DNA from: Schmidtea nova
Taxonomy: Eukaryota
Assembly (NCBI GenBank): GCA_044892505.1
Contig: CM097882.1
Span: forward strand, 515,034,001 to 515,098,000
Direction: 5' to 3'
Length of the DNA stretch: 64,000 bases
A program made the translations under genes and the position numbers. The notes beneath the pieces are model-generated. The model worked only from the letters and a program-made list of their open reading frames with translations. It was not told where the DNA came from and searched no databases. This document shows, piece after piece, positions 10,340 to 30,679 of the stretch (position 1 is the first letter of the stretch; each line of letters starts with the position of its first letter).

Positions 10340-10992
10340 AGTAGGAGGAAGTGTGGACGAGGGAACAAAGACATATGACGTCATCGCGCGTGTGCATCCA
10401 ATCAAAATCAAGTGACCCCCTGGGGTGTACTTTTTTTTGCGACCCTTCCCAATTTTTTTTACACACAGACGATGAGCCATAAAATTTTTAAGGTCAAATT
10501 TTAAGGACATTTTGAGGACACTTTAAGGTCAAATTTTGAGGACACTTCAAGGACAAGTTAAGGTCAAGGTCATGCTAAGAACAATTTTTAAGGTCAAAAT
10601 CTAAAATTTTCAAAATTTCAAAAACAAAAAACATAAAATTTTACAAAACATTTTTTCAAAAACACCAAGTGAGAATTTATCAACATTTATTAATAAATAC
10701 ACATATATGACAACAATGTTATTCCAACTATGCAATTCTTGCGCTTTTTATCTTCCAAACTGGAGTCATTGATTCTTTTGGATCGATTTTATATCCTTGG
10801 ATGGATATATCAATAAACCAATTTTCATTATCCGTATATTCAACTGATTGAAATGTATCATGAAATTCGGTGTTCCTGTTGTTGATGAATATTGTTTCAT
10901 TGCAAGATAATTTCTTGTTGATTTTCGTCAACACTTTATTGATTGCAACAACATCTTTATAAATCTGACCAATTAAGTTGGAATATTGCGAA
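10340..10992. repeat. Polinton left TIR, outer part
   Basis: Reverse complement of 30020-30679 with scattered substitutions and small indels. Confidence 0.92.
10728..10992 (-). CDS. TIR-encoded ~89 aa ORF, left copy (its MENN start is displaced to 13138-13140 by the insertion)
   Basis: SQYSNLIGQIYKDVVAINK...PVWKIKSARIA is near-identical to the right-TIR copy that starts MENN at 30009. Confidence 0.55.
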
Positions 10993-11180
10993 GTCGACAG
11001 CTTTACCGGATTTGGGACCTTGAAGGAGATTTCGTTTAGCAATAAAACATTTGGTAATAGTGAAACATCTGAACCGGTCGTAAATCAAATTTGTTTTCTG
11101 TTGATTTGATTTGTTATCGTTCCTAACTGGTTTCATTTTAATTGGACTAGATTTGCTGAAAAGATTTTGCATTTTATGAA
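10993..11180 (-). pseudogene. Gypsy-type aspartic protease fragment inserted in the left TIR
   Basis: A one-base frameshift restores N-L-I-(Y)-D-T-G-S-D-V-S-L-L-P, matching the retroviral-type DTG protease motif. Confidence 0.45.
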
Positions 11181-11350
11181 CAATACTATTTTTGCTTTCT
11201 TATTTATACTCGTCATCGTCTGTGTGCAGCCAATCAGGTTCTTGCACATGTCTTGTAAATCAATTGCATATGTCTTGCTAATCGATTGGATATGTATTAA
11301 TAATTGACTTTGTATGCATGTTGATGATTATCTACTGCAATTTCTTTCTA

Positions 11351-12995
11351 CTGTAAAATCCCGAGTATTAGATGCAGCTAATACGTACATTAAGGCAACA
11401 TTTATGAATTTCAGCTAATATGATGTGCAGCTTATACAACTAAAAAACAATTCAAATCGAAGATAAGATTATTTATTTCAATTTTCAACATCACACTCCT
11501 CAAAACCATCACTTTTCATTGTCAATAAAAGTGAAATTTTCTAGTAATTCTACAATGTTTGGATCAGACTCGTTCACATTCATTTCATTTTCTTCAATTT
11601 CAAGAACATCGTCGTCTTCACCGAATGCAACACAAAAACCATTCAAAATGGTGGAAATGTTAACATCTTCCCAAGAGGAAACAATCCATTCGAAAATAGT
11701 ATTCCAGTCAGCTGCTTTCATATTTCCGGACTTAGTATGTTTGATGTTTTCATAATCTTTAATGATCCAATCCTCCCACTTGCGCAATTTTGACTTGAAC
11801 GAACGGTTAACAGTAAGATCTAATGGCTGCACCTTCAATTCTGCAGGTATGAAAGCTACTTTGGATTCCTTCTTAATTTTATCAAGTGTAGTACTGACAA
11901 GATGTGAGCGATGCATATCAAATAAAAGCAATGATGGTACTTTTGGATCCTGGTTCCATGGTGTCTTTGGAGGCAATGTAATTCGACTCTTCCATACTTT
12001 CTTGAGCCATATCTCAAGAGTTTCATGATTCATCCAACCAGATCCATTAGCTGCAATAACAAGCTTTGATTCAGGAATGCAAGTCTTTGGATGTTTCTTT
12101 GTGCCCAAAATAACAAAAGGCGGAAGTTTAGTACCATCTTTGAGAACACAGATTGACGGTAAATCGTTTTTTCTCATGTCCTGTAGTTTTAATTCGGACC
12201 TCCTTGGCACCCTTAGTCTTAATTGTGTACCCTAAAGGCATGTCACATTAAACCGACACTTCATCAAAATTACTGATTTGATTATCGGGCAAATCCTTCT
12301 TTAAATCTGTGATGGTGCTTCTAAACTTGGCCATCTGAAATTCCCAATCTTTCGTTAATTGTTGCTTCGTGGTAGGCCGTCGAACACAAATATTCTTGCG
12401 TTTCATGAAATTATCAGTCCATTGAGAGCTCGCGACAAATCCTTCAATTTTCATCTCTTTGGCAATTACTTGTGCCTGTAAACGAATTCGAACAACCGAC
12501 ACTTGAAGTTCTCGTTCACGTTGAATTAGGATCCATTCGTGTAATTTCGTTTCCAGTTCCGGATATCTAGCGTTACCACCACGCAATGATCTTCGATTTG
12601 GATTCATTGCTTTGATAACAGACTCTTGGGCGATCCATCGTCGAATAACAGTTTCATTAATATCATATCGTCTTGCAACCTCCCGTATGTTTCCTAACTG
12701 ACGAGCTAATTCAGTTTGCCTAACTTCTAACTTCTTTTTTTCTTTGCTGAACTAAAAGATCTTCGTTGTTTCTTTTGTTTTTGTTCAGAATCGTTATCCA
12801 TTTCAATCAAGGATTCAAAAAGTGCAATAAACAATATAAACGATTAAAACAAAATGGTTATTGTTTTTTATTGATATTTGTTTTTTAATGATAGGTTGCT
12901 GATTTTAAAATCAGGTGTTTTCAACGAAAATGGTGCAGCTAATACGTGCTGCGGTTTATACGACTAAAAAAATACATTTTTATAAAAATGTCATC
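11351..12995 (-). mobile_element. pogo/Tigger-family DNA transposon
   Basis: TA followed by CTGTAAAATCCCGAGTATTAG at 11349-11371 (pogo-type terminus); transposase inside; the other end runs into the N gap. Confidence 0.8.
11509..12801 (-). pseudogene. pogo transposase (Brinker-like HTH + CENP-B HTH + DDE_1), frameshifted
   Basis: ATG at 12801 (MDNDSEQKQKKQRRSFS); NIREVARRYDINETVIRRW; YPELETKLHEWIL; NFDEV; GTKLPPFVIL, SGWMN, LLLFDMHRSH, VQPLDLTVNRSFK. Confidence 0.85.
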
Positions 12996-13127
12996 NNNNN
13001 NNNNNNNNNNNNNNNNNNNNNNNNNNNNNNNNNNNNNNNNNNNNNNNNNNNNNNNNNNNNNNNNNNNNNNNNNNNNNNNNNNNNNNNNNNNNNNNNNNNN
13101 NNNNNNNNNNNNNNNNNNNNNNNNNNN
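12996..13127. other. Assembly gap (132 N)
   Basis: Run of N. Confidence 1.
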
Positions 13128-13279
13128 AATTATTTTCCATTATTATTTTCAATAAATATTCAGCATCAAAATTTTATAAAAGTTAATTTTAACTACAAAA
13201 CATCTTTCATAACTCGGTACGTTTTAAGAAAATAAATGCTTTATAAAAAACACAATAAAAAGACACTTTAACTATAAAA
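13128..13279. repeat. Polinton left TIR, inner part
   Basis: AATTATTTTCCATTATT...ACTATAAAA is the reverse complement of 29870-30021 and continues exactly from where 10992 stops. Confidence 0.85.
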
Positions 13280-13430
13280 TGACAAACAACTCATAACACC
13301 ACATAAAAATCAACAAAATTAAAAACAAATGTTTTGGTTTTTGTTAAAAAAATTTATTAAAATAACAAAGTGCCGTTTATATTTTCTGGTTGGACATGCA
13401 AGTCCCTCGGCATTTCCCAAACTATCATCT

Positions 13431-13580
13431 ATTCGGCATCTGGCCATTCGGCATCTGGCCATTCGGCATCTGGCCATTCGGCATCTGGCCATTCGGCATC
13501 TGGCCATTCGACATCTGGCCATTCGGCATCTGGCCATTCTGTATCGGGCATTCTGTATCAGGCCATTCGATATTTGCCCA
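13431..13580. repeat. 15-bp tandem array (ATTCGGCATCTGGCC), probably the subterminal end of a DNA transposon fragment
   Basis: Seven near-perfect and about three degenerate units, ending near TAGAGTCACCC at ~13610. Confidence 0.9.
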
Positions 13581-13605
13581 CTCATCAGGACCATCTATAG
13601 TAGAG

Positions 13606-16600
13606 TCACCCCCCCCCCCGATAATGACCATAGACTAAACTTTTATTTTTACCCACCCAATTTCGTTTATCATCAGCGTTTGTTAATGCTTTTTTATTAC
13701 TTTTTACGCTAAACAACTGATGATTTTCGCTGGTTATGCGAAATTGGGGCACAGTGTAGATTTCATTATATAAATAACAATCAAGATATGATTGGTGTGA
13801 TAATTTAGTATCTTTGATTGATATACCTTTAGCCTTCATACTAGCTTTGCTACCTAATAAAAACTGTAGCATTTAGGTCTCAAAAATACCTATTCATCAT
13901 ATCCAAGGTCTTTACTCTCATCCTTAAATTTACCAATCACCGAGTCAAGGTTTCTTGAATATAATGAATGAGTCTGATCATAATTTGATGTATCTAATAG
14001 ATTATCTCTTATCATTGCTGGTAAGAGACAATCTAATTTACAATTTTTTATTTCTAGGAAAAATGAGTCGGTGTCCCCAGCAATAATATTGATTTGGCAA
14101 TTAAATTCATTCCTGTATTTCTCCAAATCACTATACTGCATCTGATACATGCGCAGTTTGGATAGATCTAGCACAGTTTGACCTATGTAACTAGGTCTAT
14201 CCAAACACACCGACTCCTTTCTCAATAAAACTGAAATTAAATTATTATCTATTTTTGTACTCTTCCGAAAAGCCGGTTTAGAGCAATATGTTTTTGTGCT
14301 GAATTGCACAATATTAAATTAATTCGTTTTTTAAGGCTTTCTACGGTTTTACCGTATAAACTGTTATTTAGTAGTTTATAATACTTTTTATCAAGTTTAT
14401 TTGTGGCTGAAGCTCTTAATTGTGTATTTGTGTCAATATATTTTTTGAATATATTATTTTGATTGAATTTATTGGCACGATGTACCTTCGATATTTTGAC
14501 TCCTATATTAATAAATAGTTGGAGAAGCCTCCAATGCAGAACGTAGTTTTTCTTGGAGTTGTGCGTGAGCAACAACTTCTCCACCTTTGAATGTGGTGCG
14601 CACATCTTTTCAGCTGCAACTGGAAAATCATCTAGTTTGTCATGAATCGACGACGGTATATCTAAATCTACCTCTAGGGTATAGCCATATGTAAGTAAAT
14701 CTAAATCTAATGTTTCACACTCTAATAATATATTATTTAATAAAATATCATCCGTTACCCATTTAAAATTACCCTCGGGGAGCTTTTGACTCAAAGCCCA
14801 TCCATACAGGTTGTTGATGTCAATATACAACAACTCAGTAGCATCACTGGTTTTGACATAGTGCTTATTAACAAAGGTAAGCCCTCCACGAATCCCTCCC
14901 TCAAAGAAATTATAAATTTCCATGTCTTGGATCAGCTTTATATGTTTGTCTAAAGTCATTAGTGCCGAACTCCAAGACATGCCAGGAATGCCCAAGAAAT
15001 TTAAGGGCTCAAGTTTATTATGAGCAAGTGATTTTGCTGAAAAAAGTCAGCCAATAGAAAAACATCTAATTTAAGATAGACCAACATGTAATCACAAATT
15101 TGTCTCTCGCCAAATATCTTTTGCCATTGAATAATCGGCCTCAGTTACATCTTTCCAAATTGGAGACAATTCAGTAATAGATAAAAGAGCATCTAAGCTA
15201 GTGGCAACATAATATGGGAAAATTCCTTTTGAATTTATGATAGTGCCTTGAAATTCCATTCAAGTTAAAGGTAAAGTATTTAAGGTCTTTACAGCTTTAT
15301 CTAAAGATTCACTTACAAATTGACAAGAGTCAATAAACTTAACTGTAAGTGAATCTATTCGCGCAAAAAGTGAAAGAAATTTTTCACTGGTTATTGGAAT
15401 AACGCTAATATTCCATGACTCATATTTTGAAAGCCCGAATTTGAGGATATGATGTAAATCATACCCTCTCAAATTATGGAAGACAACTGGTAAGGTATGT
15501 CGGATTTGCCTCGAAGCATTACATTTCATGCAAGCAGCGCCAGTGAATCGACCAGTAAAATGATCATGATCCCTAACTGGGTTATTTAAAATTTTCTTAC
15601 ACAAATAACAGTTAGTAGAAGCATCAAAAATTAACTTATCTGCGTCACTAAAAATTATTTTCTTTTGATAATTACGGTAAAAGAAAGGTGTTACAATTCT
15701 CTTACTAATATTTTCTACCTCTGAAAGAAACTCATCAACGCAATTAAGACCTAAAAAGTGTTTATAAGTTTTCGCCGGTAAAATTATTGATGAGTAACAA
15801 GCCAGCAGAAATCGGTAAGTGACGTTGAAAGTATTTAACATCTTTTGGTAATATTGCCTCAAAGTCGGCATAAATAACAAAGGGAGGAGTGACAGTTTTC
15901 ACCCAATCCTTAAATTCAAGATGTTTATTTTTAGGCAAAGTGTACAAATTTGTACCTAACTGATTTTTAGCACATAAATCTACATGTCTATTAAAAGAAT
16001 CATCGGTTCGAAAACCGTTAAGACATCTGGGACACCATTCATTATAAATACGGACGGCTGTAATTGCAAGATTTCTGCAATTTAAAAATTTATTTAAGTT
16101 AGTTATTGCAGCATAATGCTATGTCTGAGAATTTTTAAGTAATTATAAATTAATTGGTTTTCCCCCTACAACTTTGGAACGATAAATTATATCTATGAAA
16201 GGGTGTTTCATTACTTCCTCCTTATTTATGATATCTACTAAAGCTTTTTCGTCATAAGAAAGGACGTTAATTGCTAAGCCGGGATTTTGCATTTCAAATT
16301 TAGAAATGCTCGAAAGTTTCATCGGCATTTGTGAAGGATCAAATTTAAGATCTGAAAGATTATACGATGAAGGTCTATTTCGAGTTTGTCGGATAATTGT
16401 ATCATATTTTAAAATAGCCAAGACGCTATACACGAAACAAAAGTTGTCATTATTAATTACGTTAACAATACAAAATTTATTTTTTAAAGTTTTTGGGGTA
16501 TGTATAAATTTTTGGCCGCTTAACCTACTTATTTCCGCAAATTTTGTGACAATAAAGCTAATATACTCTATTTTATTAATTGTCCAGTTACTTCCCTTCT

Positions 16601-17552
16601 GATTAATTTTAATAATTTTTTCGTTTAATAAAGCAATACCTTCAATGAAATTATCGCTCATAGGCCTGGCAGAATTTGAAATGACAAAAGATTGTAATTC
16701 GTCATCTTTTTCAAACTCCACCTTCAGACAAAATTGAATTTTGACTGACCCCATTTGACTAATAATAGTATTTAATTTATTTAATAAGACATCGGGAACC
16801 GATACAGTTTTTAATATTAAGGATGAAACATCCATTTTAATAATCGAATGGGTACTGTTTAAATCAGTAGTTATTTCAGGTTCTAGTGAACCGCATCCGA
16901 TCTGATTATTAATATTATTATTATTATTTGTTGACATATTAATTATTGATGTGATATTATTATTTTCATTTGGTAACATATTAATTATTGATGTGTTATT
17001 ATTATCATTATTAATATTATTTGGATGTATTATAGAATACGAATTAATAATTACAGGAGTAATTTCATCCTCATCGGAAATATTAATTACTTCATTTTTA
17101 ATAAATTTACAAGGAATTGATTCCTCGTTTAAAATTTTTCGTTTATTGTTGCTGGAAAATTTTTTTTTACTAATATTATTATTATTATTTCCATTGTTGT
17201 TTGAGAAATTATTGACGTTGTTGTTGTTGTTGGAAACATTATTAATATTATTATTTCTATTGTTGTTTGAGAAATTATTGATGATGTTGTTGTTGGAATT
17301 ATTATTATTATTATTTATATTGTTGTTATGTATATTATTTTGAATATTAATTTTATTATTATTAAAAATAGCTTTTTTCGAACCAATATACTGAGTTAAA
17401 TGATATCGGTGTTTATCAAAAAACTCAGTATATGGAAGGGTTTCGTTCATTTTACAAACAGGGCAAATGAGGAAGGTGACTCTACTATATTTATACGAAT
17501 AGTACTTTTCCATAATTTGATGGCAATCATTATGTAAAGTATTATTAAACAT
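13606..17552 (-). pseudogene. polB: Protein-primed family B DNA polymerase (pPolB) with N-terminal extension; several frameshifts and stops
   Basis: NDNFCFVYSVLA, WCPRCLNGF, FVIYADFE (ExoI), RDHDHFTG..C..CN, VVFHNLRGYDLH (ExoII), LYIDINNLYGWAL (motif A), KLLNNSLYGKT (motif B), AGDTDS (motif C), KAKG and DDKR...YGHYR C-terminus. Confidence 0.95.
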
Positions 17553-17849
17553 AAACCTATTACGGAATAGTTTAATCTATTTTATCAGTTTAAACTATTA
17601 CATAATAGGATAATCAAATGTCAACACAAAGATAAAGTTTGTGTTTGAAAAATTACGCCACTGTGTGAATTGCGATTAACTAAATATCATAATTTATATT
17701 TAATGATTATGTCACCGTATCTAATATGATAAAGTGTTTTAATTGACATTAAAAGTATTGAAGGGTAGGTATTAATATCAACTTTTAAAAGATTATATAA
17801 TTATTATAACTAAATTATTATCATTAAGTTAATATTATTTATTAAAAAC

Positions 17850-17908
<59 letters not shown>
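17850..17908. repeat. (TTA)n microsatellite
   Basis: About 19 perfect TTA/ATT units. Confidence 0.95.
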
Positions 17909-17910
<2 letters not shown>

Positions 17911-18140
17911 ATTATTTTCAATAAGATATTAAATGTTTTTTATTATAACTTTTATTAATACTTTATAATATTATTGAAAATGAATACCATTACGTTTCTT
18001 TTTATAAAATATAATATTACTTTTATTATTTTATTGAATGTAATACTAATATAAAAAAATGATATCAGTTATTTGAAAATATTATTGAATATATTCATAG
18101 TTATTTAAAAATATTATTTAATTAAGGGAAAATATTAATA

Positions 18141-18717
18141 TTAAAATATCATAAAAACTACTATAAAACCATTATAAAAATTTAAAAATCTTACATTTTG
18201 TTCTACCATTCATCATGGAATTTATCGATGCATTATTAAAAAGAATTTCCATCATTGAAGCGTTATTTAAATTCGTCGCGGATACATTTGAAGCGTTATT
18301 AAAATTAAAATTCTTCTCGGATACATTTGGGGCATTTAAATGATCTATAAAACATTAAATAAAATAATAAATATACAAATATAATTTTACCGTTTCTATA
18401 AAAACCAATCCTGTTTTCATTTCCCGATACATTACTAGATACGTTTGGGACATTAAATTCCATCGCCGATACATTTTGAGCATTTAAATGTTCTATAAAA
18501 CATAAAATAAAATAATAAATATACAAATATAATTTTACCGTTTCTAAAAAAACCATTATTGTTATCGTTTCCGGATACATTGGTAACATTTCGCATATTA
18601 ATTCTTGACATTCCTAAAATAAATTACGTTTAAAAATAATAATAAAATAAAAAATAAATCCTTACCATTGAATCCATTGATGTTGGTATTTTTAACATTA
18701 TTGATATTATTGTACAT
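18141..18717 (-). CDS. Predicted spliced Asn-rich ~132 aa gene inside the Polinton (exons 18717-18666, 18613-18539, 18492-18391, 18344-18195, optional 18160-18141)
   Basis: GT-AG introns of 52, 46 and 46 nt (plus a possible 34-nt one), all phase 1. Internal exons are 75, 102 and 150 nt, and splicing gives a stop-free frame MYNNINNV...NGRTK. Confidence 0.65.
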
Positions 18718-19042
18718 TTTTTAATTAACGATTATAAGATGAATAAGAAATTTTGGGTTATAGTAAAAAGTGACTAAAATATTGAAAACATATCTTTATA
18801 TAAGATATATTGAATAATATTAATTGAACCAATGAAAATCGTTTATGAGAAGAAAAGATTCCCTCGCACACATACAACATGGATTTATCAGCTGTGTATG
18901 TATTATCATACACACATGTTATAAATACATGCTAACTCTTTATAATTTCCATTAATAGACACATGATTACTCATGCACGATGACCGCATAGGTCATGCAT
19001 TTCAATTGCAAATTATGTATTTCAAAGCAATTAAACATATAA

Positions 19043-19462
19043 TTAATTTTTTAAATAATCTAAAGCCCCCACCAAACACCCTTTATATGCACAATTTGTA
19101 TGATCTCGATATGGGCATGAAATATTGTCAGGAAAAGTTTCAACTTCCTTAATATTATACTTAATTAATCTTAGGGAGGGGAAATATCTTTTTAAAACAG
19201 CAAGTTTATCTTGATCAGTGACATAGAAAATTGCACCAACATCTTTAATTTCTTTCAAAATACAAGTTGGACAAAAATGATCTTCACCTTCATACCATTC
19301 TAATCTATCAGATTCACCAATTCCAGCCCAAAAAGGAACATCATTATATATCCAATATCTTGGCCGAAAAATATTATTAACATTCATAATACATAATTCT
19401 TTAATAATTATCCCACCGCAATTATCATTATAACCATAAATATCAATAAAATAACAAGTCAT
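19043..19462 (-). CDS. Small DEDD/DnaQ-like nuclease-fold protein of the Polinton
   Basis: Intact 139 aa ORF with YFIDIYGY...IIIKELCI and a C-terminal CPYRDHTNCA, resembling the Cys/His-tailed exonuclease-like ORFs of invertebrate Mavericks. Confidence 0.5.
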   Translation of the reverse strand: MTCYFIDIYGYNDNCGGIIIKELCIMNVNNIFRPRYWIYNDVPFWAGIGESDRLEWYEGEDHFCPTCILKEIKDVGAIFYVTDQDKLAVLKRYFPSLRLIKYNIKEVETFPDNISCPYRDHTNCAYKGCLVGALDYLKN

Positions 19463-19492
19463 TTTTCTAAAACATTTATTAAACTACATTGT

Positions 19493-19830
19493 TTATACTT
19501 TTAACATTGAATTAAGCCATGCAAGACAATGTTGACCACAAGTAATTGTTAATGGATGTTGATACCGAATTCGATTATATACAATCGGTTTACCCAATGT
19601 TTGTAGTCTACTAACTAATAAACCGGGGTAATAACATCCGAAGGGATCGAATGCATACACATTGCTTGGTTTCACGTATACAGCAATCCAATGTTCTCCA
19701 CCTAGAGTAGATGATTGAGTATTGACGACTATGGATTGGTTGACATCTAAATAAGAGATTTTGTCTAGTGGATATACTCCAATAAATTCACTTCCCAATA
19801 AATGTTTTCCAATTCGATTAACCTGAATAG
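19493..19830 (-). CDS. Adenain-like (C5) maturation cysteine protease
   Basis: FIGVYPLD, IVVNTQSS...GEHWIAV (His), FDPFG (Asp), YQHPLTITCGQHC (Gln/Cys). The frame extends upstream as SIQVNRIGKHLLG; the start codon is unclear. Confidence 0.9.
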
Positions 19831-19917
19831 AACTATATAAATAGATTTATATAATAAATAATAAAACTTACTCCATGACAAATTGTTAACTTTGACTTGT
19901 ACATTTATATTGATAGT

Positions 19918-20260
19918 TTAAACCAACACTGTTCGATTAGCAGTAATTTGAATTTCATTTTCAAATACTCCATATAATATTACATGTACTGGTGCTTCAA
20001 TAGCTTTAGAAAACTATATCCAATCTCAAATTTCCATTTTGAGGTAATTGACTTTGATTTAAATCGAAATTCGGAGCCAAAACAAATGTAAAGAAAAGGT
20101 ATTTGTTTTTAAAATCGGCTAGTGTTAAACCACAATTTAAATTCTTATCCCATATTTCTGAACATCGACTGCATATATGTAGTACAATAATTATCATTTT
20201 CAAAATCTTGAGTATATGTTTCTCGATAATCAGTGTTTTTCGATGAATAGATCACTACAT
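19918..20260 (-). pseudogene. Major capsid (double jelly-roll) protein, C-terminal remnant only
   Basis: YTQDFENDNY...SMFRNMG, LADFKNKYLFFTFVLAP, GNLRLDIVF-SKAIEAPVHVILYGVFENEIQITANRTVLV*, typical of the Polinton MCP C-terminus. Confidence 0.75.
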
Positions 20261-20466
20261 GTTCTATTTTCAATTCTTTTGTAATCAATCTTACATTGAA
20301 TATAAAATGGAAATCTGTTGTACACAATTGTGAAATCTTGCAATGCAACTTCCCAATTACCATCTAGATAAATCGGATTTTGAAGATTTACCATGAATTT
20401 ACTGGCTTGATTATCTGGATGTATTAGTGGACAGCTATTACTTGGCAGAATAGTATAGAAATTCAC
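20261..20466 (-). pseudogene. Minor capsid (penton) protein, N-terminal remnant only
   Basis: NFYTILPSNS...PDNQASKFMVNLQNPIYLDGNWEVALQDF, typical of the Polinton minor capsid N-terminus. Its GTG start overlaps the integrase TGA. Confidence 0.8.
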
Positions 20467-21517
20467 TTTACTAGATCTTTTGATGATATCCATGACGGGT
20501 TTTGATAGCCATGCCACTTTACGTAGTATTGTTTATCCTTACCCACGAATTTTAGTTTTTAATATTTTTTGAATTCTAAATACAGTAGGCGGAGGAATAA
20601 CTTGTAATTCTTGCTCGTAAAATTTTCCACTAACTACATTATTGTTGAGTCAGAAATAACATACATGACAGGATCTTGGCTAGTATTAATTTTTGAGATC
20701 TGAAATACCTCATCACTCCAATTACTATCAAGATTTTTGATGAATGGCGAAGCGCTAATCTTACTAATTCGAACATGATCACCAATTTTATATTTCGGTT
20801 TCTTTATATTAGTTTTTAATTTGTGAGATCCAGTATTTTTCGTTGAAACATCAACAGGTCTCAATCCATTTATACCTTTGTGTGACGAATGATTATAACT
20901 ATGTATTATTTTTGGCAGTACATCAATCCATGTTTTATTACCTTGATGCACAAAATACTTTTTCAATCGATCTCTTAATGTACGATTAAATCGTTCAACG
21001 TTGGCGGCTTTGAATTGAAAGAACACAGAATAATGATTAATCCCGGCCAAAACTTATTTAACTTTACTATTGTAAAATTCTTTACCTAAATTATAATTTA
21101 CAATGAACAAAATTAGTATATATTCTTACCCAAATCAGTTTGTAAATTCTTTGGACGACCGGACTTAAACATAGTTTTGATTGCAACAGCCATTTCATTT
21201 GCTGATTTAGTTTTAGTAGGAATAGCCCGAGCAAATCTATTGAAAACATCGATACATGTTAAAATATATTTATATCCCTTGTTAATATTTGAATAGGGTA
21301 TCATTTCCATCAAATCCATTTGCCACAAGTCATTAATGCCATATGTTTTATATGCTCTTGTTGGAAATCGTTTCAATGCCCGTTTGTTTAGACTGTATGC
21401 CAGTTGCCCCGATAACCATTTTTGAGTTTCTTTTTTCGAGTTTGGGACTTTTTTCTTTAGCTTTTCGACTCCACTGAAACCGACGGGATCTTTTGGGTTT
21501 GTCCATATCTTCTCCAT
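20463..21517 (-). pseudogene. Polinton retroviral-type integrase with C-terminal chromodomain, frameshifted
   Basis: DLWQMDLMEM, YKYILTCIDVF, LQTDLGK, KAANVERFNRTL, KYKIGDHVRISK, WSDEVF, GKFYEQELQ, FRIQKILK...YYVKWHGY...SWI. Confidence 0.93.
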
Positions 21518-21609
21518 TACAACAAGAAGAATTAAAATTCAATTTAAGATTGACCATTTTTGATTCGAGCAAAAACCGTTTGGAAATCATTTTTATTTTG
21601 ATCAAACAA

Positions 21610-22318
21610 TGTTTTTAGCAAAGAAGCGAGCATCTCGAGATTGTAATCACTAAATTGTCTTTCGTAATGAACACCACGTAACAGAACTGAAAGAGGCTCT
21701 CTGTGATTTGTTTGGCCATTGGTTTGAGATCCAGAGAACTGCGCACTTGAGGGATCTTGATATCATTATTGAGCTTGAATGTCAAGCTTTGCTCTGAAGA
21801 CAAACTCCGATACGATAATATGATTTCGACAATACACTGCTCGGTGCGATAATAAGTTTGATGCTTGAAGTAAAGTTCATAAAAATGTTCCACAAGCCTG
21901 GTTCCGAAGCATATCGACAACATCCTTTCTAGTAATCCAACGCAACCATTGACGAACGCAGCACAATCAGCCATATTTGCAATATTCAATAGCAAAAAAT
22001 TGATTATTCAAAATAATTCCTAAGCGATTCAAAATATTTCAAAGGAAAACTTCCCCACTTGATTATTCAAACAAAAACAATTCTACCAACTCAATTAAAA
22101 TCCATTAAATCACTAGAATTAAAATCAATTTATTCCTAAAAGAAAATGCGCACACCGACGCAAAAAAGCACAGCTCTGCGCACACAGACGCGAGAGTCTA
22201 CAAAAAATAACTAATGCGCACACAGACGCGGACACCAAATAAATATAAAAGTAACATGCGCACACAGACGCGTGTAAAGCTTACAATTCAACAGCCATTT
22301 TTCACTTTGGCTGAAACA
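21610..22318 (-). repeat. 3' LTR of the BEL element (~709 bp)
   Basis: Bounded by TGTTTTTAGC...GCTGAAACA (TG..CA with short inverted ends). The minus-strand PPT GGTGGGGGAAA directly precedes it, and four GCGCACAC(A/C)GACGC motifs lie at ~22146-22272. Confidence 0.75.
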
Positions 22319-25300
22319 TTTCCCCCACCTTGATCCCTTCTAGCGGATCAACCGACCAATTTAGCTCTAGAGGGCAAACCTTGCTTATAGGTCTCAATAT
22401 CTCCTTTCCTCTGCTAAGGATCTTTAACACCCGCACCTTTCCATCTTCTCCGGGACAAACTTTCGCTACTCGTCCAAGCTTCCATGATTTCTTGCATAAT
22501 CCGTCTTCCAATAACCAGATCAAATCTCCGGATTTTAAATCTTTTCCTTCCTTTGCCCATTTCCTTCTATTCCTCCATCCAAGAACAATATCTTGTCTCC
22601 ATCGTCGCCAAAATTTCTCGCTCAAATCCTGAATGATCTGCCATCGCTTTTTCATGCCGGTTTCAGTAAGCTCTATCTTCTCCTCGCTAAACCTTTTATA
22701 ACCGGGCTTGATAAAGTGATTCGGCGTCAATATTTCTTCTTCTTCCGGATCCTCACTCATAGTTGTCAGCGGTCTACTGTTTACCATATCTTCCGCTTCC
22801 GCAATGACAGTTTGCAGCTCCTCGTCCGTTAACTCAGCAACTCCAGCAACAGCTAATAAAGCCTTTTTCGCTTCCTTAACTAATATCTCGTACACCCCTC
22901 CAAAGTGTGGTGCACTGGGAGGGTTAAAAATCCATTGAGTACGTATCAATCTCCACTTTCTCAATTTCACTTGCGGCTCCTACAAAATTCGTCCCGTTAT
23001 CAGACAATATCAAAATGGGGGTTCCGCGAATGCACTGATAAAACTCTCTGTGTCCAGTTGGTGCGACATCTCTAGATGCACCGCTCTTGTCACGAGACAA
23101 GTGAATAAGCACAAATACCGCTTCGCTCTTCGATTCCCCCGCCCTCTTATGACCGTTGTTATTGGTCCTGCGTAATCCACCGCAACTTTTTTAAATGCCT
23201 CTAGAGGTTCATTCACTCTAAATCCAGGGAGTGGCGCCATTATTTGTTCCATTTTCCTTGCTCTTCCCTTTTGACAAATCACACATTCTTTTCTTATCCT
23301 TTTTATCAATTGTCGTCCACCAACAATCCAATACCTTTCGTTCACTTTTGACATCAAATACTCCATACCCCCGTAGTGATTCAATGACTGATGTATCTCT
23401 AATACTATTAACCGAGCCACCCAACCTTTCCCTGAGAGTATGATCGGATACTTTGTCGCCGGATCCATCCAAGTTGCATTTGCCAAACGTTTCTCACTCC
23501 GCGTTATTCCGTCATCCCAAATTTTGGGGCATAATGATTTTAGTGCACTCTCCGATCCCACGAACCTACCCCTCTGAATCTCTTTCCATTCCTCAGCAAA
23601 CTCAATTTTTTGATCGTCAAGGATCAATGTGACCTCCGCATCTTCAATTTCTTCACTTGTAAGTGCCCCATTTTGCCGTTTTGTTTTTTCTCGTTTTATA
23701 TTCTCAATGAATCTTTTCAGCCATGCTCTTGTACGAACCAGTCTTCTCCATTAGGAGTAGGTCTTTGGGTCTAAGCAACTCGTTTTCCAAGCTGACTCTA
23801 AATCATCTCTTGTCGTGGTAAGGAAATAACTCTGTATCCAGCTCTGATTCTTAGTCTCCTGGGCTCGCTTACTTTTCCATTTTGGCCAACTGTCTTCCTC
23901 CTCCTGCAGAAATCTTGGTCCTTCAAACCATACCTTGGAATCTCTAAGTTCTTCTGCTTTCATTCCCCTTGATAGCAAGTCTGCGACGTTTTCTTTCGTT
24001 GGCACATACCTCCACTGTAATCTTCTCGTTGTTCGTTGAATTTCCGCGATTCGGTTCGCAACAAATACCTTGCAATTACGCCTTAATTGCGTTATCCAAT
24101 ACAAGACGTCTTCACTATCCGTCCAGAAGGTGATGTCTTGCATATTTATCTTCAAACATTGTGATACCTTTAGTCCTAATTTCACTCCCAATTCAGCTGC
24201 CAATATTTCCAGTCGCGGAACGCTCACTACCTTAATTGGCGTTACTCTGGATTTAGCTGCGATTAGGTTGGTTTTTACACTTCCCATTTGACTCTCTCTG
24301 ACGTAAGCTACGGCCCCATATGCGCATTTTGAGGCGTCAACAAAAATATGGACCTTCCACTCATTTTTCGTGTCTCCAATTAAACATCTTTCGCATCTGA
24401 TCTCATTTAAAATTGCAAATTCTTTCAGCCACCCTTCGACTTTCCTCAGAAGATCTGGTGGCAATAAGTCATCCCAATCTGTACCAGCTAGCCAAATCTC
24501 TTGCATCAACAACTTACCTTTAATCAGAAAGCTTCCTGCTAATCCCAATGGATCAAAGATTCTGGCTAGGCAACTAAGAAATCCTCGTTTCGAAAGACAT
24601 TGTTGAGTTGGTGGTTTGACATCGTAACTAAATTTATCCTCTGCCGCAACCCAAACTAGTCCCAGGGTTTTTACTGCCACTTTGTTTTCCTCGTTCAAAC
24701 TTAAGAGTTTTGATATCCTCTTCATAGGAATAGTTTCTAATACCTTTTTATTATTAGTGAGCCATTTATTCGTAACCATTCCGGCACTTTCCCAGATACT
24801 AATAATTTCATCCTTGACTCTGATCGCTTCCTCAGACGATTGAAAAGAATCCATCGTATCATCCATGTACGTGGACTCCATTATTATTTCTGCCGCCATT
24901 GGAAACCTTTCTTGAAATTTCTCAGCATTTCGTCTGGTGACTAACTGCGCCAGAAATGGAGATATGTTTAGTCCGAAGACTAACCGTTCAAATTCAAATC
25001 CCTCAGTTTTTCCATTTTCATTCCAAATAAATCTTAAATATTTTCTATCATCTGGATTCACCTTTATTTGAAGATACATTTCTTGTATATCACAAGCAAT
25101 CGCCACCGGATGTTTTCTGAATCGTAATAATATCTCGAATAAATCATTTTGTAGCTTTGGCCCTTGCTCAATAGCATTATTTAAATTAATACCATTACTT
25201 TTCGCTGCAGCATCAAAGACTATTCTAATCTTGGTTGTCTCCTTATCCATCTTAATCACAGGAAAATGTGGCAACCACCACTTTGTCTCACCGAATTCCT

Positions 25301-26626
25301 TCTCTGCCAACAACCTGATATAACCTTTTCGCACGTAGTCATTGAGCACGTCTTTGTAGCTGTCTTTTAACCTACCGTCTTTCATCAACCGATTGTCCAG
25401 ACTTCTCAAACGCTTCTCAGCCATTTTTATATTATCTTGAAGTTGATACTTGTTCTCCCTCCATAATAGGCTAACCGTGAACCTTTCATCCTCGCACGAC
25501 ATACCTTCGATCGCCCTTTGCATTAATATTTCCTCACTCTGGCTGAACTGATTCCTTTCAATGTGAGTCTCCTCAATTTCCCAAAATTGCCGCATCTGAT
25601 CCTCCAATCTCTCTGTTTTAGAAAAATGGCTCTGGACAAAATGAGTGTTGCGGAGCTTGATCTTCATTGATCTTGCCCAGACATGTCCATCCGAGAGGCG
25701 TCAGTCTGGCAACCGGCTCATCCGAATTCCTTCTCTGCCAACAACCTGATATAACCTTTTCGCACGTAGTCATTGAGCACGTCTTTGTAGCTGTCTTTTA
25801 ACCTACCGTCTTTCATCAACCGATTGTCCAGATTTCTCAAACGCTTCTCAGCCATTTTTATATTATCTTGAAGTTGATACTTGTTCTCCCTCCATAATAG
25901 GCTAACCGTGAACCTTTCATCCTCGCACGACATACCTTCGATTGCCCTTTGCATTAATATTTCCTCACTCTGGCTGAACTGATTCCTTTCAATGTGAGTC
26001 TCCTCAATTTCCCAAAATTGCCGCATCTGATCCTCCAATCTCTCTGTTTTAGAAAAATAGCTCTGGACAAAATGAGAGTGTTGCGGAGCTTGATCTCCAT
26101 TGATCTTGCCCAGACATGTCCATCCGAGAGGCGTCAGTCTGGCAACCGGCTCATCCCTCATCCTTCCTACTTCTCGAATAGATCTGTGCAAATGGGGATA
26201 GTCGGCCCCAACTAAAACATCTATCTGCGGTCTTTTCCCAAGAACCGGGAATCGAATGTCCTTTAGGTGCTCCCAGTTATACGCCAGCTTTTGCCAATTG
26301 CATGCTCTTAAGTCCCCCGTGACGCTTTTGACGACCAGAGCCTTAAAGTTGACTTTCACCTTGTTATTATTGCTTGCCAACATCACCTCTATCAGCCTTG
26401 TTTCCAACATTTCCGATTTCCCCCCAATCACGCCAACTAGAATATTTTCCCATTGTCCCCCAACGCCTAATTTCTGAGCAACCCAATCACTAATGTAACT
26501 CACATTACTTGCATCGTCAAGTAATGCATTTACTCGGAATTCCTTCCCTTTATTAATTAATTTAATCGGAATCGTTCTCAATGGCACATACATGTTCTGA
26601 CTTTGTTCTGCGTGACAGGTCACCAT
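22302..26626 (-). pseudogene. BEL/Pao pol (protease, RT, RNase H, integrase, DUF5641-like tail)
   Basis: NALLDDASNVSYI, WWLPHFPVIK..KIRIVFDAAAK, YMDD, IFVDASKCAYGAVAY, VAVDYAGP, CLFTCLVTRAVHLE, SDNGTNFVGA, FNPPSAPHFGGVYE. Confidence 0.93.
25291..26152. repeat. ~430-bp direct tandem duplication inside BEL pol
   Basis: 25291-25720 and 25721-26152 are near-identical (both start CCGAATTCCTTCTCTGCC and end GGCAACCGGCTCAT). One copy lacks 2 nt (ATGAGTG vs ATGAGAGTG). Confidence 0.9.
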
Positions 26627-26629
26627 TGA

Positions 26630-27650
26630 CGTATTTTTATTCTCATCTTTCTTTTGACTGTCATTTATTTTGACCCCTGGGCTATGCAGTAAGACCTGCC
26701 GACAGACAATTAAAACATAACCCGTTATTTTTCACAAACTCATGACGCTCTTTCGCATCATACTTTTAAAAATCTGGACATCGGTTTAAATAATGTTCTC
26801 CTTTGCATTTCTTACATTTTAGTGTCGTTTTTCGTTCTCCACCAGCTTCTACCTTCGGATTGTTATCCACAAAATTTGTAACCCTCTTCTTATTTTCAAT
26901 CTCCTTTCTATTTCCTGGCTTTCGCTCTCCAAACAATATATTCAAAGCCTTGCGATGCCTGTCAGCTTCTCTTTTTACCCATTCTGCCAAGGTTTGTACA
27001 TTTGCCTCCTTCCCTGACTCAATTGCGTGCCCACTGTATCAGCATGGTTTCCGGTAACTTTTTCAACAGTTGGTGATACAGGATTCCATCGTTTAACTCC
27101 TTCTCTCTTTTGGTCTTTGAACGTCAAGATTATATTTCCCAGTAGCTCTTCAAACCGTTCTAGGTCTTCCAATACATTGAGCCTCACTGGAAAGAACCTC
27201 TGTACCGCGTCCAGCATCATTGAATATGTACGTTCTGGTCCACCAAATCTGTCATCCAATAATTTTATTGCCGCTTCAAAGGCTTGAGAGCCATATCCAA
27301 TATAGGCAATTAATTGCAGAGGTTTCCCTTCCAAATACTGTCTTAAGTACAAGTATTTCCTTTCGCTCGTTTCCTCTGTGTCCTCAATGCAAGCTCTCAC
27401 AATTGCTCGCCACCCAGAATACTCCATGATCCTTCCATTAAATACCGGAAGCTGTAAGGGTTTCAACCCTGTCAACAATTTTGGCCTTTCCTTGACCTTA
27501 TCCGCCTGAAGAGATTGTTCCCCAATCTTAAATGATTCCATTTTAACACTCTTCCTTTTTACTAAACGCTAACTCTCCTATTCGGTTAAATTCCGCTTCC
27601 AATCGTTCGAGGTCTCTCTCAATATCTTTTAATGACCAGTCGGTAATTGA
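26630..27650 (-). pseudogene. BEL/Pao gag, N-terminally truncated
   Basis: LKPLQLPVFNG (DUF1759-like), KYLYLRQYLEG, and the CKKCKGEHYLNRCPDF zinc knuckle. Confidence 0.85.
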
Positions 27651-27658
27651 CCCATTGT

Positions 27659-28066
27659 TTATGATTTTGAGGGCTTTCCTAGTAATCCTACACCACCTAA
27701 TAAAGATAATGCTAATGGTAGCAATGCCGCAATAAGCCCTCCGTGTTGTTTATATATTATTTTGCGCATTTGTTTTTTATTTTTAGTATTTACTAGTGAT
27801 AATAATGGTTTCTTGTGTTTGTTCAACACATTTTTATTTGATTTACTGATATTAATTTTACCTTTGACAACTTTAACTATAACATCAAGTAAATCATCAA
27901 TTACATAATTGGGAAACGATTGTAAAATACACATTCTTCTAATGCTTGGAACTTTGAGTAAGGCTTTGAAAAATGGAAAACTGCGATGATTTTTAGATTT
28001 TTTACTTGAAGTTGTCTTTGGCATCTTTGGTGTATCGGGTTTTGAATTGTGTGAAATTAGATTCAT
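27659..28066 (-). CDS. Small basic Polinton virion-type protein with C-terminal Q-x-GG plus amphipathic segment
   Basis: Lys-rich; ILQSFPNYVIDDLLDVIVKVVKG...KHKKPLLSL...KQHGGLIAALLPLALSLLGG, a pattern common in Maverick small ORFs. Confidence 0.7.
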   Translation of the reverse strand: MNLISHNSKPDTPKMPKTTSSKKSKNHRSFPFFKALLKVPSIRRMCILQSFPNYVIDDLLDVIVKVVKGKINISKSNKNVLNKHKKPLLSLVNTKNKKQMRKIIYKQHGGLIAALLPLALSLLGGVGLLGKPSKS

Positions 28067-28191
28067 TTTGAGAAAATTTTCGGTGATTAATTTTTTCGGA
28101 GGCGTGAAACTCGTTTTAGATGGAATTAGTGTTTCACGATTCTTTTTAATAACTTTTCTAAGTTGAATTCTTTGGATGTTTGGATCGTGTT

Positions 28192-28834
28192 TTAAGTATC
28201 ATGATTAATTTCGAACATAAATTTAACTTTGTTTATAAACCATTGCTCCTTCTTTGTTAAAAATATCAGTTCTAACACGTAATTCATCACTACATTGTTG
28301 AGTAAAATCGAGAAAATATATCCATGTGGGACTTTAGTTGCATCTTGAAATGCATTGATCAAGAAATTCCGATTATTAGGGTAAGCCTGTCTAGCAAGAA
28401 AATCGATAACGGTAGCATCTCTAGGATTTTTAAAAATAACTAGATATTGGACATTCAAATTTCGAGTTCGATGACTACCACCCTGGTGAAATAAATTCTG
28501 AGTAATAAAATAACTGTAACTCCTTTATGTCTAGCAATTTTTGTGAATAACTTATTGAAATCCTTCTCTTTATTTGCTTGATACAAATCATCAATAATAA
28601 TTACATCACTTCGTAATCTAGACGACCAGTTTTTATCGAATCCTTTTATTATTGTCATTTTAATCTTACAGAATTGATCTTGAGTCATTCCATGTTCATC
28701 ATCAGCTCCCCTATGCCAATAAATTTTGTTAAATTTTGATTTGAATAATTTTGACTGTAATAATTTACAAACAAAGTTTTTCCACTTCCACTTGGACCGA
28801 CAATTTGATAAACTGCATCATTTCTTAACTTCAT
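28192..28834 (-). pseudogene. FtsK/A32-like genome-packaging ATPase, frameshifted
   Basis: ATG at 28834 (MKLRNDAVYQIV), Walker A GPSGSGKT, Walker B VIIIDDLY, and YLVIFKNPRD...LARQAYP...AFQDAT..PHGY. Confidence 0.9.
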
Positions 28835-28911
28835 TTTTAAAATATTAAAATATTGTTTTAATTAATTGTTATACTTTTACGAAAATTATTTAAAAAATAA
28901 TCAGTCTTATA

Positions 28912-29382
28912 ATGTTAAGCAACATAAATTACAAAGGAAAATGTTCTGTTTCTCTTATGAAATTTCCAAATGGTAAGCCACAGCAGATTGTAGATAGGAA
29001 AGGTAAGTATCCTATAATATTTTTCAAGTCCGGTAAATGTAGAATAATGGGATGTAAACAACCTCTTAAAGATCAAGATTTATTATATGAAATAAGTGAT
29101 TTATAAATACAATCGATTACAGTTACTACAGATATTGGGAAATTTGTCAATTTACATGAATTGTCGCAAAATCTCTCATGTTCTTATGAACCAGAAATAT
29201 TCCCGGCATTGAGATATATAAAGTATAATCCTTTATGTGTAAACGTATTCAACAGTGGTAAAGTTGTTATACTCGGTATAAAATCATTAAACTATCATGC
29301 TTTGGTTGAAAAAATAATTAACGATATCAAATCGGTTATTGATGACGTAGAATTCTTGAAATTCTTGTTACTTGTTACATAA
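28912..29382 (+). CDS. TATA-binding protein (TBP)-like gene, 156 codons with one in-frame TAA at 29104-29106
   Basis: Two pseudo-repeats: LSNINYKG...IIFFKSGKCRIMGCK and IQSITVTTD...YEPEIFPALRY...VNVFNSGKVVILGIK. ORFs 28912-29106 and 29161-29382 are in the same frame. Confidence 0.8.
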
Positions 29383-29574
29383 TAAAATACAGGATTTTGA
29401 TTGGTTGTTCGGAAGGAAATACTTCATTTTGATTGGAAGACGGTGTGTACGAATTAACAGTATATATAACGACATCATTTTCATTACATTTATATCAACA
29501 GTAAAAAGATGTCTCTTAATAAAACCAATGGTAAGGATTGATTTTTATTTTGAAATTTTTATTAATGCGTTCTT

Positions 29575-29865
29575 TTGTTTTTAGAAAAACTGATGGGCGT
29601 TCTGCTTGAAAAAATAGAGGATTTTTACCCGAAACCTATGCGCGAATTGGTTTACTTCGCTCCAGAGCTTCTTCCTTATAAAATATTGGCATTTACCGGA
29701 ATCGATCTCAACAAGGTGTTGCTCGACCATCACCATAATATAGAAGAAGAAGAATCCAGCGCTAGGATTATCTGTGCCTATAGATGTGAAAGTTGCATCA
29801 ATAGGACTCAGAAATACCACAAATGGTTACTCCGAGAGGAGTTAAGAAACTTTTTAGGACAATAA
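29575..29865 (+). CDS. Unknown 96 aa Polinton ORF with C-x3-C-x2-C motif
   Basis: Open frame ending just before the right TIR; contains ICAYRCESC. Confidence 0.45.
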   Translation: MFLEKLMGVLLEKIEDFYPKPMRELVYFAPELLPYKILAFTGIDLNKVLLDHHHNIEEEESSARIICAYRCESCINRTQKYHKWLLREELRNFLGQ

Positions 29866-29869
29866 ATAT

Positions 29870-30679
29870 TTTTATAGTTAAAATGTCTTTTTATTGTGTT
29901 TTTTATAAAGTATTTATTTTCTTAAAACGTACCGAGTTATGAAAGATGTTTTGTAGTTAAAATTAACTTTTATAAAATTTTGATGCTGAATATTTATTGA
30001 AAATAATAATGGAAAATAATTCGCAATATTCCAACTTAATTGGTCAGATTTATTAAGATGTTGCAATCAATAAAGTGTTGACGAAAATCAACAAGAAATT
30101 ATCTTGCAATGAAACAATATTCATCAACAACAGGAACACCGAATTTCATGATGCATTTCAATCAGTTGAATATACGGATAATGATAATTGGTTTTTTGAT
30201 ATATTCATCCAAGGATATAAAATCGATCCAAAAGAATCAATGACTCCAATTTGGAAGATAAAAAGCGCAAGAATTGCATAGTTGGAATAACATTGTTGTC
30301 ATATATGTGTATTTATTAATAAATGTTGATAAATTCTCACTTGGTGTTTTTGAAAAAATGTTTTGTAAAATTTTATGTTTTTTAAAAAAATATTAAGTTT
30401 TTTATGTTTTTGAATTTTTGAAAAATTTAGATTTTGACCTTCAAAATTGACCTTAGCATGACCTTGACCTCACGATGACCTTAACTTGTCCTTGAAGTAT
30501 CCTCAAAATGTCCTCAAAATTTGACCTTAAAAAAAATTATGACTCATCGTCTTTGTGTGTAAAAAAATTTGGGGGGTCGCAAAAAAATACCCCCCCCCAG
30601 GGGTCACTTGATTTTGATTGGATGCACGCACGCGATGACGTCATATGTCTTTGTTCCCCCGTCCACACTTCCTCCTACT
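29870..30679. repeat. Polinton right TIR (~810 bp)
   Basis: Inverted match to 10340-10992 joined to 13128-13279. Confidence 0.92.
30009..30281 (+). pseudogene. TIR-encoded ORF, right copy (in-frame stop at codon 16)
   Basis: MENNSQYSNLIGQIY*DVAINKV...PIWKIKSARIA; TAA where the left copy has AAA, plus a one-codon deletion. Confidence 0.55.

Follow-up and report, generated by a model that had tools for sequence, protein, structure and literature searches.

A decayed Polinton encloses an array of short exons

The window analysed here, a 64,000-nucleotide stretch of Schmidtea nova DNA, contains a Polinton/Maverick element of 20.3 kb that is internally deleted and decayed and carries DDE and Pao insertions (Table 1). 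The host genome is AT-rich and 1.25 Gb in size. The element has the TIRs, AG...CT ends and 6-bp target duplication of a Polinton, together with a PF03175 PolB, an rve integrase (PF00665, E 2e-8) and an adenovirus-like protease (PF00770, E 1e-5). PF03175 matched the polymerase fragment in the window at E 3e-17 and the sister copy L106 at E 5e-31, and Pfam returned no hit on the 1387-aa polymerase frame of L105. No packaging ATPase or major or minor capsid protein was named by Pfam or PHROG in the window; judging by motifs, the fragments at 28192-28817 and 20006-20532 may resemble such proteins, and the D-N-x-C-F motif in two of three polymerase frames could be OTU-type. The nested insertions are a Tc5/DDE_1 transposon (11509-12751) and a Pao retroelement (22302-27568), the latter with a 300-nt internal duplication (25291/25722). 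A TBP-like gene on the plus strand (28894-29382; PF00352, E 8e-13), with one interrupting stop in the window copy, is an unusual passenger in view of the TATA-type leader promoter described below.

Sister copies were abundant, with at least 40 full-length matches (40 of 40 scored, of 725 candidates), and three protein searches gave at least 150 matches each, many of them near-identical. The Polinton expansion in this genome is very large and young. All DNA evidence is drawn from this one genome and from related copies, and loci L031-L060 were picked because their polymerase frames were long or their matches exact, a choice that biases the sample to young copies.

Table 1. Features of the element in the window. 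A slash within a motif marks a splice junction.
Feature	Position	Strand	Remarks
Polinton/Maverick host element	10340..30679	.	TIRs; AGTAG...CTACT ends; GTTATC target duplication on both sides
Further pPolB fragments (endonuclease VII, PF03175)	14249..15898	-	separate frames in window copy
pPolB N-terminal part (Cys/His-rich domain and Asn-rich tract)	16143..17547	-	
Long last intron, remnant (predicted)	17548..18194	-	stretch with pPolB acceptor missing in window copy; break near 17548
Leader exon 4	18195..18344	-	150 nt; AAA T at its end, at last donor
Intron 3	18345..18390	-	46 nt; GT..AG; phase 1; 45/46 bases identical to intron 2
Leader exon 3	18391..18492	-	102 nt; with one 46-nt intron forms the 148-nt unit missing from some sister copies
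Intron 2	18493..18538	-	46 nt; GT..AG; phase 1; 46, 47 or 50 nt among copies
Leader exon 2	18539..18613	-	75 nt; 75 nt in 43/43 copies
Intron 1	18614..18665	-	52 nt; GT..AG; phase 1; 48-56 nt among copies
Leader exon 1	18666..18717	-	52 nt; bears ATG at 18717; type C exon 1 likewise 52 nt
Initiator-like TCACTTTT, predicted transcription start	18766..18773	-	28-31 nt below TATA in 69/70 leader starts
Predicted TATA box	18795..18802	-	TATATAAA begins at 18802, 85 nt above ATG
Second intron-bearing gene	29509..29865	+	22-nt exon; 54-nt GT..AG phase-1 intron 29531-29584; predicted 100 aa

The exon-intron pattern of the leader

The first-pass annotation had read an ATG, three GT..AG phase-1 introns and a stop-free spliced frame on the minus strand, and these coordinates were reproduced, as was the near-identity of introns 2 and 3. 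The spliced leader frame in the window is 29% Asn. Its 148-nt-spaced unit matches at 114 of 130 bases, and GC content was 23-33% in the leader exons and 9-12% in the short introns. In a strict scan of the 64 kb the four-exon array was the sole chain of two or more short introns, and the same scan found such a chain in none of 2000 order-1 Markov simulations; both results are supporting only, since the filter was tuned after seeing these introns and the simulation ignores duplication. Tested as a U2-type spliceosomal gene, the array showed GT-AG ends, a T-rich acceptor tract, consistent phase and conservation among copies. The exon-intron pattern in the window is genuine, and the claim of predicted spliceosomal exons inside a Polinton was supported. 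A possible fourth intron of 34 nt (18194-18161) was dismissed, as its acceptor AG was present in just 15 of 30 copies though the donor GT was present in all 30.

The TATATAAA reported about 90 nt upstream of the ATG was located close to that distance. A TATA followed by TCACTTTT 28-31 nt downstream was found at 69 of 70 leader starts (49/50 type A, 14/14 type C and 6/6 type D), and the TCACTTTT motif is a putative initiator.

The second intron-bearing gene kept its GT..AG ends in 20 of 20 copies and its ATG and 100-aa frame in 17 of 20. Its intron has the same AATG/GTAAGGATT donor context as leader intron 1 and about 71% likeness to it over 55 nt, a hint that the two may have a common origin.

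Predicted exon number varies among sister copies

A four-exon leader was present in 43 of 50 loci, the remaining seven being three rearranged copies and four with a type C leader. GT/AG sites and frame were conserved among these siblings as proposed, with all seven splice sites canonical in 40 of the 43 four-exon copies and the leader frame open in 35; eight copies were broken, and length changes other than multiples of three fell mostly within introns. Seven of ten copies with a type-B polymerase carried the type A leader minus exactly one 148-nt exon-intron unit, which agrees with the earlier suggestion that the array grew by unit duplication. One of the other three had a two-exon in-frame form and two were without a full leader.

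Type C leaders gave no blastn match to type A. They have three exons (52, 102 and 192-240 nt) in phase 1 and were in frame in 13 of 14 copies, the other, L069, having been left out of the models because the donor anchor of the script missed a variant. Of nine modelled type D copies, eight had an open, in-phase leader of 3, 5 or 7 exons; the ninth had nine exons and was out of frame, and three further loci were without a start. Across leader types the predicted exon number was 2-9 per copy and the leader length about 80-240 aa. This range among sister copies is explained by whole exon-intron units being duplicated or lost with the reading frame unbroken, a change that is frame-neutral because all introns are phase 1 and the internal exons are multiples of three. 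The identity of introns 2 and 3 likewise follows from tandem duplication together with an exon.

In-frame length variants made up 19 of 24 classes in exons and 6 of 20 in short introns (Fisher p = 0.0013), a comparison of hand-listed classes from related, non-independent copies in which codon-period repeats favour changes in multiples of three. In one rival account, noncoding AT-rich tandem repeats mimic exons and pPolB starts at its first internal Met. Codon-period repeats alone yield indels in multiples of three, the sequence is of low complexity and leader pN/pS is at or above 1, all as this account would have it. However, dissimilar leader types share GT-AG ends, phase 1 and promoter spacing, the simulations gave no such chain, and an internal-Met start would lose 19 residues that are conserved with outside homologs. 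We consider this account extremely unlikely.

The same polymerase type was observed behind leader A and leader D, and leader A was observed before two polymerase types (L015, L020-L022, L025, L026, L029 and L053-L060 compared with L072-L082). Judged from these arrangements, recombination within the long intron apparently exchanges leaders as modules. Many copies were rearranged, either pPolB or the promoter being duplicated in inverted orientation (L036, L037, L042, L043, L044, L051, L074, L106), and there were divergent pPolB pairs, several at a near-equal spacing of about 3.65 kb. The inverted duplications suggest amplified snap-back or defective forms.

The leader peptide is probably selected for frame rather than sequence

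The ten N-x-S/T sequons (NVS x6, NAS x3, NVT) and the lack of an obvious signal peptide described previously were both reproduced in the window copy, with 4.7 sequons expected from shuffles (P = 0.003) and no segment hydrophobic enough for a signal (best 9-residue mean -0.1). The excess of sequons would fit a captured or viral glycoprotein gene in which they are functional. Against this, sequon number was inflated through unit duplication and ranged from 2-3 in type C to 2-17 in type D, and neither the signal peptide nor the conserved sequons of a secreted or membrane glycoprotein were found. A functional meaning for the sequons was not borne out, and the likelihood of a glycoprotein gene is close to negligible.

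Between copies the leader pN/pS was about 1.3-2, showing no purifying selection on amino acids. Group-shared codon changes in the leader numbered 16 nonsynonymous and 2 synonymous, and short introns 2 and 3 were less divergent than the leader exons. We infer that the leader is a disordered Asn-rich extension selected for frame and not for sequence. Introns may help expression or escape from the silencing of intronless transcripts.

The leader probably opens the polymerase gene

In sister copies the polymerase frame begins 559-1364 nt below the last leader donor, at a T-rich AG/GT acceptor whose AG was present at 73 of 75 pPolB starts (motifs from 74 of 81 loci). The window copy is one of the exceptions and, having no acceptor, is likely unable to make the leader-pPolB join. 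An in-frame ATG upstream of the acceptor was found at 1 of 75 starts, and the leader bears the sole start codon in reach of the pPolB frame. The acceptor falls at the same codon in two divergent polymerase types whose first 200 nt are 69.5% identical, and the search at pPolB starts found one acceptor per copy. The last donor, AAA T/GT, is common to three dissimilar leader types. It and the acceptor are both phase 1, so the predicted join is in frame. Polymerase starts without a full leader occurred in the rearranged copies L036, L037, L042, L051 and L052. Four sequencing runs on L005 behaved as genomic contigs, covering all 30 bins with contigs continuous across the introns, and GT..AG ends were found at none of the 15 joints per table among the joints listed, so these runs do not bear on splicing.

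The N-terminus of the polymerase exon supplied a further constraint. A search with its first 73 residues against 1.84 billion representatives gave 24 homologs, of which the ten looked up were all unnamed. The pPolB N-terminus is a Cys/His-rich domain of ~60 aa (window about 17510-17370, minus strand) that is present in 1-3 tandem copies in the outside homologs (P0001-P0024). The predicted fold of one homolog was confident (pLDDT 84), and comparison of the domain with Pfam, PDB and viral folds gave no significant match (best Foldseek E about 0.8-0.9). The homologous-protein search found nothing for the domain among longer proteins and nothing for pPolB residues 1-420. Wherever a homologous domain had upstream sequence (17 of 17), a Cys lies 5-7 residues before the next conserved Cys, a count from a regular expression that matched 18 domains in the 24 hits and missed some, one domain too near the N-terminus being left out. 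Several of the homologs P0004-P0021 have a called Met two residues ahead of that Cys. This column is Gly in the genomic frame here, and a Cys arises only from the spliced T/GT. The conserved Cys would therefore be made only via splicing from an exon ending in T, and all three leader types provide such an exon. As a separate observation, a Q-x-G-[CG]-G motif follows a low-complexity tract in two polymerase types (L103, L105; window pPolB) and a small basic protein (window 27659-28066) contains QHGG; by analogy these are possible sites for the protease of the element.

These data bear on the two options raised by the first-pass annotation. In the first, the exons are a small spliced gene of their own (132 aa as annotated); its Asn-rich product, about 130 aa long, would stop shortly beyond the fourth donor, and pPolB would start elsewhere. 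The array does have its own TATA and ATG, the element has another small intron gene, and with the last donor unspliced the frame reaches a stop within a few codons (CKIFKFL and then stop in 32/43). However, the acceptor of the short fourth intron is missing from half the copies, the last donor is kept in the dissimilar leader types, pPolB has an acceptor and no ATG, its first conserved Cys requires the T of an upstream exon, and the loci examined showed no further donor exon in the interval from leader to pPolB. An independent gene is therefore very unlikely. The second option, a spliced leader feeding pPolB, gained from the Met-less start, the acceptor AG, the phase match and the junction Cys. 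From this sequence evidence we infer splicing both of the leader exons and to pPolB, and the four exons are very probably the spliced 5' coding leader of the Polinton protein-primed DNA polymerase and not a separate gene.

A spliced leader of pPolB would work as follows. A transcript driven by the predicted TATA/initiator promoter would have three short introns and one long intron taken out by the host spliceosome, and the leader would be joined in frame to the polymerase, giving it a start codon as well as the initial T of the Cys codon with which the Cys/His-rich domain begins. The Asn-rich extension would lengthen and shorten under little constraint on its sequence, since duplication or loss of units keeps the frame.

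The long last intron could also be a regulated switch that allows both products, for which P-element IVS3 control is a model. Retention would give a free Asn-rich peptide and no polymerase, and splicing would give the polymerase. The last intron is 10-25 times the length of the other introns in all leader types, and the type C and D donor GTTAGT makes the codon that follows the junction Cys a stop. An early stop is nevertheless expected in any AT-rich intron and both the length and the repeat content of the long intron vary freely, which makes a switch unlikely. We are equally doubtful of a fuller scheme that combines host-spliceosome control of the polymerase, an on/off switch at the long intron and exon-unit duplication tuning Asn-rich length under selection. 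Here retention would place a stop at the junction Cys and release a free, possibly self-assembling Asn-rich peptide, and the leader would act as an 'accordion' of exons at the front of a virus-like replication gene.

Relation to known systems

The available parts of earlier reports describe Alpha-type PolB of adintoviruses as OTU plus pfam03175 (10.1101/697771), the Polinton polymerase layout as TP-vOTU-EXO-PALM (10.1101/2024.03.18.585575) and Maverick introns as confined to cargo genes, with none in the core genes (10.1101/2022.07.12.499685). The element studied here resembles Polinton/Maverick elements (adintovirus) in its TIRs, 6-bp target duplication, PF03175 polymerase, rve integrase and adenovirus-like protease. 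Unlike in described Polintons, 2-9 upstream exons appear to encode the start of the polymerase, which also has an extra Cys/His domain. Polinton core genes are annotated as single ORFs, and the common though not strict trait of intronless core genes would be absent here, pPolB having predicted leader introns. We found no report of a spliced Polinton pPolB in the literature, as far as its text was available, and subscription journals, Repbase entries or supplements could hold one. Splicing goes unmentioned in the available text of 10.1101/2024.03.18.585575 and 10.1101/697771, and there is nothing on spliced pPolB in that of PMC10748475, PMC11296320, PMC6431247, PMC12721341, PMC12220804 and PMC5718144.

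In adenoviruses, pTP and pol mRNAs have common 5' exons (PMC11304566) and the first coding exon of HAdV-37 pTP is predicted to be 9 nt long (PMC2397415), according to the accessible portions of both sources. The leader is like these E2B mRNAs in placing the start codon of a replication gene on a small upstream exon. Unlike E2B, it would code for 80-240 aa over several exons, varies in exon number and, as far as seen, feeds one acceptor only. The comparison with adenovirus pTP/pol transcripts drawn at first stands as an analogy and not as shared descent, convergence appearing likelier than homology.

Near-identical spliceosomal introns within Polinton-like elements are also known as introners in dinoflagellate Maverick-like elements (PMC11957031, from the part of the article available). 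Unlike introners, the identical introns here come with a neighbouring exon by tandem duplication and not as inserted intron transposons. A further parallel lies in eukaryotic host genes, where duplication of symmetric (phase 1-1) exons gives frame-neutral gain and loss of exon-intron units. What differs from host genes is that the young copies of a single virus-like element here show it as standing variation. With 2-9 leader exons apiece, these many copies offer a rare chance to count duplications and losses of symmetric exons directly within a single genome. If the leader is indeed spliced to pPolB, ORF-based annotation would cut the Polinton polymerase short at its N-terminus, and replication of the element would, like that of adenoviruses, require transcription in the nucleus and splicing by the host, a dependence that ORF-based annotation would miss.
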